Positions 28,743 through 31,529 of a DNA stretch of 64,000 nt are shown one piece after another. Origin of the DNA: Octopus vulgaris (taxonomy: Eukaryota); contig OX597826.1 in assembly GCA_951406725.2 (NCBI GenBank), positions 41,478,001 to 41,542,000 on the forward strand, read 5' to 3'. How positions within the stretch are numbered: the first letter of the stretch is position 1; every line of letters starts with the position of its first letter. The position numbers and the translations under genes were made by a program. The notes beneath the pieces are model-generated. The model made no database searches and was not told the origin of the DNA. It worked only from the letters and a program-made list of their open reading frames with translations.

Positions 28743-30510
28743 ATGGTTAAAATGTCTTGCGATATCTTTTCCTGCTCTTTACAATCTGAGTTCAAATCCC
28801 ACCGAGGACAGTTTTGCCTTTCATTTCTACAGAGTCGTCAAAACTGTTAGCCTTAACCCTTAACAATTCTTAGACTGAGGACATGGCTCTAATGCTCACA
28901 GCGAAGTGGTCTATGCTAAAAGAGCCCAAGATCAGCTTGTGTTAAGCCGACGCTTTATGTATACGAGAAATTATTGTCTTGTAAGGCCACCGGCTGTATA
29001 AAGGAAGGTAATTGCAGTCGGCGGGGTAGTGGTATTTGTGATGTTCATGTCCTTCCACCGAATATCTTCAGCGGAAAGGAAATGGAATGATTTCAACAGA
29101 GGATTGAACCTATGTCACAGACTATCACACCTTTTATTCTACACCTCAGAATTATGACAGCAGTGCATTAAGAATATAATCACAATTTGAAGTGTGTATC
29201 CATTCCTTTAGCTTTATTTAAGTTTCTACAATGGTTTCAAATTTTGGCGCAATGCCAGCAATTTTAGGGGAAAGAGATTGTCGGTTACATCGACTACAGT
29301 GCTCAGTTGGTATATATTTTATCGAGATCGAAAGGATTTTTATCCTTTCGCTCTCGGCGGAATTTGAACCATGAACACAAAGAGCCTGAAAAAACACTGC
29401 TAAGTATTTTTCTCGACACTCAAAAGATTCTGCTAGCTCGTTGTCTTAATGGCTTCTAAACTAAACAATGAAGGATAATACATTGTGATTGAGGAGCCAT
29501 TTGTCTGATATTTTTAGTGTTACCTCGTATCACCTTTCATTGGGGGAGACGAAATATATTTTGAAGTTCAAGTTCATCGTCATTGCGAACTTTCCAGCTA
29601 AGGACATTTTTGTGTCATTCACATTCTTGAAAAAAAAAAACAAAACAAAAAAAAAACATACACTTTCGGAAATTTGTTAAACATCGATAAAGAGACCTTG
29701 GACTGTTTTATATTTTGCAAATATGTTATCCGTTTAAAAATTCATTGTCATTCTTCATCGGTGAAAACTGCATTTTTTTGCATCGGTCGGTCGAATCATC
29801 CAAGGTTACGTAGTGAAAATTGCTTTTGATAAAATTGCTTTGATAAAAGCTACTGGTAAAAGAAGAGTATCTGATATAAAAACATAGCCACCAGGCACAT
29901 ATACATGTGTGTTGGTATAAATTATATATATAAATAAAGAGAGAAAGATAGAGAGAGAGAGCGAGAAAGAAAGAAAGAGGGAGAGAGAAAGAGAGAGTGG
30001 GACTCTCATACATAAATATACTCCTTTCCTTTGCGTCACTGTCTGGCGTGTTCTTTTATTGACAAGAAGGATTATGTGAAGGCCAGGCTGTTCCTGGCCT
30101 CAGTTAAACAGTCAGTATTGGCAATATAAACCCCATATACAACATTCCTGGTCTTATTCATCCCTTTCTATCTAAGTATTATATAATGCCATGGAAATTC
30201 TCTTAAAACGGCAACGCTGTTTCAATCCTATCTGAAGCGCTTTACAATTGACTTGACTCAGTTCTTAACGATTCAATGAAGGATCATCTATGTGTTGGCT
30301 CGATCTGCTGGAAATTGCAGCTAAATTTCCTTCAAATTACGCCAGAATCCTATGAAATTAAGAGCATTGAACTATGTGGTTTTAGATATTTAAGAAGGTG
30401 GGATGGATACGACTGGAACGTGTATTGATAGATGGCAAGTTGGATGTATGAATAGATAGAAGGATAGACAGATGCATATAAAGAAAGATACACCAATAGA
30501 TAGATTCATG

Positions 30511-31189
30511 CAGTTCTATATTTAAGAGATGAGGAATTATGTACATTATTTACATTATTTATATTTGACGGATATTTGTCCTTATCCTGTTTGTTGTTAA
30601 CACAACGTTTCGGCTGATATACCCTCCAGCCTTCATCAGGTGTCTTGGGGAAATTTCGAACCTGGGTTCTCATTCCAAAGGTATTTTTCGATGTTATTAT
30701 TATTATTATTATTATTATTATTATTATTATTATTATTATTATTATTATTATTATTATTATTATTATTATTATTATTATTATTATTATTATTATTATTATT
30801 ATTATTCAGGTCACTGCTTGGAATCCAACTCGGAATCTTGGGACCTGAATAATAATAATAATAATAATAATAATAATAATAATAATAATAATAATAATAA
30901 TGATAATAATAATAATAATAATAATAATGATAATAATAATAATAATAATAATAATAATAATAATAATAATAATTATGATGATGATGATGATGATGATGAT
31001 GATGATGATGATGATGATGATGATGATGATGATGATGATGATGATAATAACATCGAAAAGAACCTTAGGAATGAGAACCCAGGTTCGAAATTTCCCCAAG
31101 ACACCTGATGAAGGCTGGAGGATATATCAGCCGAAACAACAAACAAGATGAGGACAAATGTCCATCAAATGTAAATAATGTAAATAATG
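30511..31189 (-). mobile_element. TSD-flanked inverted retroelement insertion: B-box-like head, (AAT)n and a hammerhead-bearing tail
   Basis: TAGATAGATTCATG is duplicated at 30497-30510 and 31190-31203. ~30540-30810 and ~30842-31189 are inverted copies. Confidence 0.8.
30599..30644 (-). ncRNA. Minimal type-I hammerhead ribozyme with canonical core
   Basis: gacac-CTGATGA-A-GGCTG gagggtatat CAGCC-GAAA-CGTT-gtgtt: 5-bp stem I, 5-bp stem II, palindromic AACGTT. The inverted copy at 31100-31137 has lost its 3' strand. Confidence 0.8.
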
Positions 31190-31529
31190 TAGATAGATTC
31201 ATGGATATATAGATTTGTGCGTGTGTGTGTTTATGTATATTTACACGCACATTCACACGCACACACACACACACACACATATATATATATATAGTATACT
31301 GTTATGTAAAGGTAAGATCAACAAAAAGAAAGTACTCCATCTGGTGAGAGATAAATATTGTTTAATGAACACAATATAGATTTTTATGAGATACTAATAG
31401 TTTCATGCAACGAAAACAACTCAGTCAACATTTTATAACACGTCTGGTACCTTCGTGCAATCTTCAGGCTATGTTTACATGGCATATACAAGCTAAAACA
31501 AGACGACTGAATAAGAGAAAATACGTTTA

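Follow-up and report, generated by a model that had tools for sequence, protein, structure and literature searches.

Penelope-like elements (PLEs) of the Penelope/Poseidon clade, such as Penelope from D. virilis and PAc from anole, are described as having a single ORF that encodes a reverse transcriptase (RT) plus, at the C-terminus, a GIY-YIG-like endonuclease (EN) of the CCHH type (PMC8557442, PMC11167929). According to the same descriptions, they have pseudo-LTRs, partial tandems, an inverted 5'-truncated copy, a one-sided tail of 30-40 bp, and a minimal hammerhead that overlaps the start of the ORF; the inverted truncated copy and the one-sided tail are given as known PLE traits in PMC8557442. 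The octopus family that we describe here is like Penelope and PAc in these respects, with a candidate EN. It is unlike them in that its pseudo-LTR contains an (AAT)n spacer and a tRNA-derived segment of 73 nt that carries an A box and a B box (the head), and in that the 5' ends of its copies pile up at this head. Penelope from D. virilis is instead described with an Inr/DPE-type, LINE-like internal promoter in its pseudo-LTR (PMC2377424).

Several other kinds of repeats resemble this family in part. According to PMC10886601, non-autonomous TRIMs are the only elements described with a promoter of tRNA or 5S origin in the terminal repeat. These TRIMp3 elements (Cassandra, Helenus, and Ajax) are like the octopus family in that a Pol III-type promoter derived from a small RNA lies in the terminal repeat (PMC10886601), but they are non-autonomous LTR elements, whereas the octopus head is in the ORF-bearing PLE itself. 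The same paper argues that the autonomous partners of TRIMp3 have to rely on Pol II, and that long stretches of LTR are unlikely to be common to both. Like the octopus copies, non-LTR retrozymes and SMalpha are short repeats that are non-coding and carry a type I hammerhead. Retrozymes form head-to-tail tandems, mostly with canonical hammerheads, whereas the octopus copies are solo or head-to-head and have a minimal hammerhead. SMalpha is of tRNA origin and uses Pol III. Animal retrozymes have been proposed to be derivatives of PLE pseudo-LTRs (bioRxiv 10.64898/2026.07.22.740005, PMC7229834), and SMalpha from Schistosoma has been termed SINE-like (PMC8490949).

SINE2 families (including OK, OR1, and OR2 from octopus) have, like the octopus PLE family, a tRNA-derived head with A and B boxes, a 3' part in common with an autonomous partner, a length of about 300 nt, and about 10^4 copies. 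Unlike SINE2, the PLE family has a head that is common to the autonomous element, has no LINE tail, and has PLE-type insertions. By description, OR1 and OR2 are set apart from it as CORE-SINEs (PMC4758252, PMC4824008), and the PLE family has (AAT)n directly after the head. An annotation of octopus repeats reports 893 unclassified SINE families and 30 Penelope families among recently active insertions (PMC13282606). The part of that paper that we cite makes no mention of hammerheads, and its supplements may contain the family. In a search of the literature, mostly at the level of titles, we found no published PLE whose pseudo-LTR has a tRNA-derived head. Both the inverted dimer and the hammerhead are already known as PLE traits. 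What appears to be new is a tRNA-derived segment within an autonomous element's pseudo-LTR, marking the 5' end of most copies.

The locus lies in a 64,000-nt stretch of Octopus vulgaris DNA (the window). As a reading of the sequence alone had placed them, and as the sequence and a repeat scan confirm, two inverted arms with hammerhead cores are flanked by identical 14-mers (TAGATAGATTCATG, plus strand) at 30497-30510 and 31190-31203. The 14-mer at the right end shares its first 2 nt with the end of the element, so the target site duplication (TSD) is 12-14 bp. The first arm (30842-30511, minus strand) consists of a remnant of the head, (AAT)n, an ATG, a hammerhead, and the tail. By alignment to the heads of the family, the remnant (30809-30842) is the 3' part (+40 to +73) of a tRNA-Arg-like head. 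Its B box (30831-30820) has one substitution: it reads GTTGGA, and the column is C (GTTCGA) in 9 of 11 full heads of the family. A 5' truncation has removed the A box. The (AAT)n spacer (30694-30808) leads from the head to the start of the PLE ORF. The first 54 codons of this ORF (30511-30673, with the ATG at 30673) run in frame across the predicted minimal type I hammerhead (30599-30644) and the 31-nt tail (30511-30541). The tail is found on the first arm only; where copies are in tandem, it continues into the ORF.

The inverted second arm (30842-31191, plus strand) contains the last 4 nt of the head, an (AAT)n/(GAT)n stretch that is longer than the first arm's, an ATG at 31071, a hammerhead core at 31100-31137, and a short 3' end without the tail. 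It is short of 11 nt, and with them of the cleavage triplet and of stem I's 3' strand. The arms are 86% complementary over 200 nt (from the repeat scan of the window), and in the predicted fold of a transcript across the locus, the pairing is mostly arm to arm. With no A box, a mutated B box, and no cleavage site in the second hammerhead, the window copy is probably dead. Inverted arms, a one-sided tail, and a TSD match known PLE traits, so this is an ordinary insertion of its PLE family. We are nearly certain that the feature is real and that it belongs to a family of the Penelope/Poseidon type.

The hammerhead in the first arm (30644-30599) has a 5-bp stem I, CUGAUGA, an unpaired A, stem II, GAAA, and a palindromic CG, with a predicted GUU cleavage site after 30604. 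Stems I and II are present in the minimum free energy (MFE) fold. The minimal PLE type I hammerhead, as defined in PMC4209133, has the core CUGANGA/GAAA, a helix I of 4-5 bp, an unpaired base 5' of stem II, G10.1-C11.1, and a palindromic 15.2-16.2, and this arm has all of them. The core pattern has 3 matches in the window (0.21 expected), and two of these are the two arms. The stability of the MFE fold is not unusual (z = -0.7). When the dimer is folded, the active conformation is predicted not to be the MFE, an outcome that is uninformative. The sequence-only reading had called the hammerhead canonical, and it had proposed a check against Rfam. No hammerhead family was among the 10 Rfam matches at E <= 10, and neither the window nor the element gave a hammerhead or tRNA match (the best 150 of the 338 Rfam matches in the window were microsatellite matches). 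Given the minimal PLE architecture and the lack of a match to an Rfam model, we ruled out the canonical class; the predicted hammerhead is of the minimal PLE type. The cores of the two arms are on opposite strands, so the pair in the window is not a ribozyme dimer. The head-to-tail hammerhead units of retrozymes are absent from this head-to-head locus.

The same anatomy recurs across the genome. A 39-mer running through the hammerhead has 1,268 exact occurrences in the 2.8-Gb assembly. This 39-mer is intact in just 2 of 87 independent arms (0/49 and 2/38), so the family would comprise tens of thousands of arms, which is a very loose estimate. Among 90 loci chosen by the 39-mer only, 61 have an inverted arm upstream (scored automatically, so a few may be unrelated neighbours). 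The inverted copies that had been described as an inverted dimer are thus real, and they are the ordinary structure of a PLE insertion. The tail is on exactly one arm in 52 of the 57 pairs with both 3' ends scored. Direct repeats of at least 9 nt, with a mode of 12, flank 37 of 51 loci, versus 8 of 153 mismatched control pairings. (We dropped 6 loci from this set because the second arm was cut short or distant.) Along with the TSD in the window, this bears out the proposal of a single insertion event. Also, the arms of one locus have minor variants in common: we counted 17 in 31 pairs, where the null mean is 7.7, and none of 2,000 shuffles reached this number. The protein of PAc nicks and extends both target strands in vitro, and its RT initiates at two internal positions, which delimit the tail, and requires ORF sequence beyond them (PMC11167929). 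The one-sided tails match these two start sites.

Some loci are more complicated. L029 (230-1223) contains two head-to-tail units of 497 bp, 96% alike, beside a normal copy. These units have the same hammerhead, tail, and short 3' end as the family, with an unrelated body and no tRNA head, and are retrozyme-like. Three ORF fragments on the same strand, about 16-17 kb apart (G000:C3:140425081-140458876), suggest a larger tandem duplication. In five loci (L013, L017, L084, L087, and L127), the 3' ends of non-LTR elements lie in or beside the (AAT)n spacer, which is thus an apparent target site. These elements have a restriction-like C-terminus, and we take them to be Dong/R4-like; their 32-nt end motif also occurs in L138 and L145.

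The sequence-only reading had proposed a tRNA-headed SINE that is mobilised by a PLE, and had suggested a search for PLE ORFs with the same tail. There is such an element. Coding sequence lies directly upstream of the head in 4 of the first 30 loci that were selected by the hammerhead. In 30 loci found by searching with the peptide encoded there, pieces of the pseudo-LTR directly follow the stop codon in 28, and a head is detectable in 23. At the other end, the tail is directly upstream of the ORF start, in tandem, in 18 of 30 loci selected for the ORF start. The order of the unit is the ORF, 37 nt, the head, (AAT)n, the ATG, the hammerhead, the tail, and the ORF start. In locus L258, the ATG ahead of the hammerhead opens a single unbroken frame that crosses the tail and continues into the N-terminus of the PLE, and the arm in the window encodes the same first 54 residues. 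Since the ORF is linked to the head, and the hammerhead and tail are in the frame of the ORF, the "SINE" is the pseudo-LTR of the PLE (its 3' UTR plus the start of its ORF). The tRNA-derived head and the mobilisation of the unit by a PLE were both correctly proposed; the head's place after the PLE's ORF in 23 of 30 loci argues against a separate SINE. An unusual partnership of a SINE with a PLE is not supported either, as the head is within the PLE's own pseudo-LTR and the hammerhead and tail are its ORF start.

The ORF encodes an RT: RVT_1 matched 2 of the 4 family fragments that we scanned (E = 2.4e-10 and 4.3e-9), and the RT is 27% identical to that of another PLE family (E = 7e-33). A search of PDB sequences gave weak RT matches only. 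The C-terminal domain has VYSIPCSCGRLYKGET followed by R, H, H, and E, and it lacks the linker cysteines (in aligned copies, read by eye against PMC8557442). Pfam's GIY-YIG model had no match to this domain, and the EN region had a weak BLASTP match to the EN of the other PLE family (E = 0.06). By the criteria of PMC8557442, EN residues of the CCHH type without a CxxC linker point to the Penelope/Poseidon clade. The longest open frame has 569 amino acids (locus L141), and no intact master copy was found among the copies that we examined. The ORF-bearing copies have a median difference of 5.5% from the column majority (n = 73).

A conspicuous second PLE family (L037, L042, and others) has a cysteine-rich linker of the Neptune type and many open frames of 781 amino acids, whose identical scores suggest recent activity. 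As a partner for the window element, we rejected this family, the most conspicuous GIY-YIG family in the genome: the tail was absent from 30 of 30 loci.

We then examined the head. With a strict pattern, we found 11 full heads of 73 nt each in the 90 loci. They carry motifs of the A-box and B-box consensus, so full tRNA-like heads are present in genomic copies, as the sequence-only reading had expected. The heads align without gaps over about 65 nt to genomic tRNA-Arg(TCG). Among 8 tRNA anticodon types (from 30 tRNA loci), tRNA-Arg was the best match for 11 of 11 heads. Their scores of 54-64 compare with shuffle medians of 32-35, and each of the 8 heads that we shuffled scored above all of its shuffles. 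ARAGORN found no tRNA in the window, in 22 loci, or, at lowered thresholds, in the 11 heads; Rfam did not recognise the heads as tRNA; and the heads do not fold as a cloverleaf. The head was not paired with other tails. In 40 loci chosen by the head alone (two look like duplicates of one insertion), the hammerhead or tail is within 1 kb in 35, and in the other 5, the head and (AAT)n are followed by unrelated DNA.

The 5' ends of the copies are concentrated at the head. We took 84 arms, anchored at +14..+33, from 120 loci. In 74 of these arms, the 5' end is between -7 and +14, with 16 ends at -7 (the mode) and 11 at +1. Two others have their ends at -8 and -12, and the remaining 8 continue towards the ORF (one was reassigned by eye because of an indel). 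Similarly, 33 of the 40 head-selected loci end at -7..+12, none end at -8..-19, and 7 end further up. Counts of 20-mers across the genome give the same picture: 896 at -28..-9 versus 5,890 at +14..+33. These 20-mers survive at similar rates in ORF-linked copies (13/49 upstream and 16/49 inside the head), and the calibrated counts are about 3,400 upstream versus about 18,000 in the head, or about a fivefold drop. The ends also cluster at the head where the opposite arm is headless or absent. The tandem loci speak against a single start site: of the 5 that have an upstream head, 2 continue past it into the 3' end of the ORF, so longer or circular templates existed too.

BLAST ends had suggested a Pol II initiator at -17, which we dropped because mapping at the level of bases puts the boundary at -7. 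Separately, 14 of the 30 ORF-start loci (L253, L255, L256, L258, L262, L264, L267, L268, L270, L271, L273, L274, L275, and L278) break off just past a 6-bp hairpin, at a point that lies upstream of the downstream head by 2,034-2,147 nt. (The lower bound is biased by the query.) This hairpin resembles the head palindrome in its stem, and several of the loci then jump to a head or hammerhead. The break-off point is possibly the 3' end of a short RNA.

Our main reading is that the window locus is one pseudo-LTR insertion, that the tRNA-Arg-like head is likely a Pol III promoter, and that short SINE-like copies were likely made from this RNA by the RT that the element itself encodes. We give this reading a probability of roughly 0.65. 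The RNA would start about 6 nt upstream of the head; the putative start is a purine at -6, which is 13 nt before the A box. A short leader is typical of pre-tRNA, and a start at -6 fits. The RT-EN protein would have nicked both target strands, as PAc does in vitro, with priming at two internal sites, the end of the tail and about 35 nt earlier. The cDNAs primed at the first junction of pseudo-LTR and ORF would have run off the 5' end of the RNA after about 300 nt, and two cDNAs would then have been joined head to head, often through the small palindrome at -7..+5. Priming at the downstream junction would have given the ORF-bearing copies, which are under 1/5 of the head-bearing arms. At the window locus, both cDNAs would have stopped early, at +40 and +70.

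The pile-up could have another origin. The copies might be ordinary 5'-truncated PLE copies from Pol II or read-through RNA. The tRNA-like segment would then be a passenger, from an old SINE head that had inserted into the pseudo-LTR, and a palindrome would make the pile-up a snap-back hotspot. The palindrome that spans -7..+5 has 5 bp, and many arm junctions are fold-backs there, as this explanation would have it; templates that span the ORF end, the head, and the ORF start exist; and the promoter of Penelope from D. virilis is described as TATA-less, LINE-like, and internal (PMC2377424). Hairpins in the ORF have a mild excess of 5' ends as well (4/37 versus 1.5 expected), but about 80% of the arms stop at this one 5-bp hairpin, compared with 3/37 at the best ORF hairpin. 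Furthermore, most ends fall on the stem's far (5') edge as the mode, where RT has already crossed the stem, and copies without an inverted arm share the stop. We consider this explanation unlikely.

It seems less likely still that solo pseudo-LTR copies are an independent SINE lineage, acting as Pol III source genes, with the PLE protein supplied in trans and the head inherited from the PLE. Short copies outnumber ORF-linked copies by about 5:1, and the short unit lacks T4 in 2 of 3 copies checked. The 497-bp tandem derivative in L029 suggests that derivatives are mobilised in trans. However, the PAc template is reported to need ORF sequence beyond the RT start sites (PMC11167929), and solo copies end at the tail without such sequence. 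Also, only five columns in 140 are polymorphic. We regard it as very improbable that the head is instead an RNA-processing signal, at which a longer Pol II transcript would be cut at +1 in the manner of RNase P. The second peak of ends, at +1 (11/84), would fit such a cut, but the main peak is at -7, several of the +1 ends are the partner arms of fold-back junctions, and the head has no cloverleaf fold.

If the head is a Pol III promoter, as our main reading has it, then the autonomous PLE might be transcribed end to end by Pol III, although we think that this is doubtful. The promoter in the upstream pseudo-LTR would drive the whole RT-endonuclease unit of about 2.6 kb, which is terminator-free. 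The uncapped RNA would be translated via the (AAT)n leader and would spawn SINE-like copies by internal priming near its 5' end. Runs of at least four Ts are absent from 2,352 majority columns, while the other PLE family, with the same T content, has 7 and 6 such runs per 1.8 kb. But runs of G also stop at 3 in the majority columns, and synonymous shuffles of single copies were not significant (P = 0.11-0.66), so the absence of T4 is only compatible with Pol III. Sequencing runs under 7 organism labels contain the repeat, and no RNA run was among those listed. Two raw RNA runs (X23 and X24), perhaps from an organism other than the window's species, do contain the family. RNA depth is about 2,000-fold on the pseudo-LTR and drops below 10-fold at the ORF start, in parallel to the contig data (a gradient of DNA truncation). 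Because these runs are unstranded and their depth tracks the truncation gradient, they are uninformative about the promoter. Transcription of the full unit by Pol III, if true, would contradict the expectation in PMC10886601 that Pol II is obligatory for autonomous partners. It would also pose the problem of how translation proceeds on an RNA without a cap.

Our main reading would blur the line between SINEs and autonomous elements, as one PLE would play both parts, enzyme source and SINE. It provides a concrete path by which Penelope pseudo-LTRs could give rise to SINE-like families and to hammerhead retrozymes. By this reading, some of the "unclassified SINE" content in genomes of this kind should turn out to be Penelope. 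In the genome, the copies also support priming at two start sites, which has so far been seen in vitro for one element.

Two other features of the window are near the element. At 31703-32068 (plus strand), 500 bp from the element, are two direct copies of about 182 nt that are 82% alike; by the repeat scan, they are unrelated to the element. At 59222-60718 (minus strand) is an open frame of 498 codons with three C2H2 zinc fingers at its end, which we presume to be KLF-like. The element lies about 28 kb downstream of this frame.
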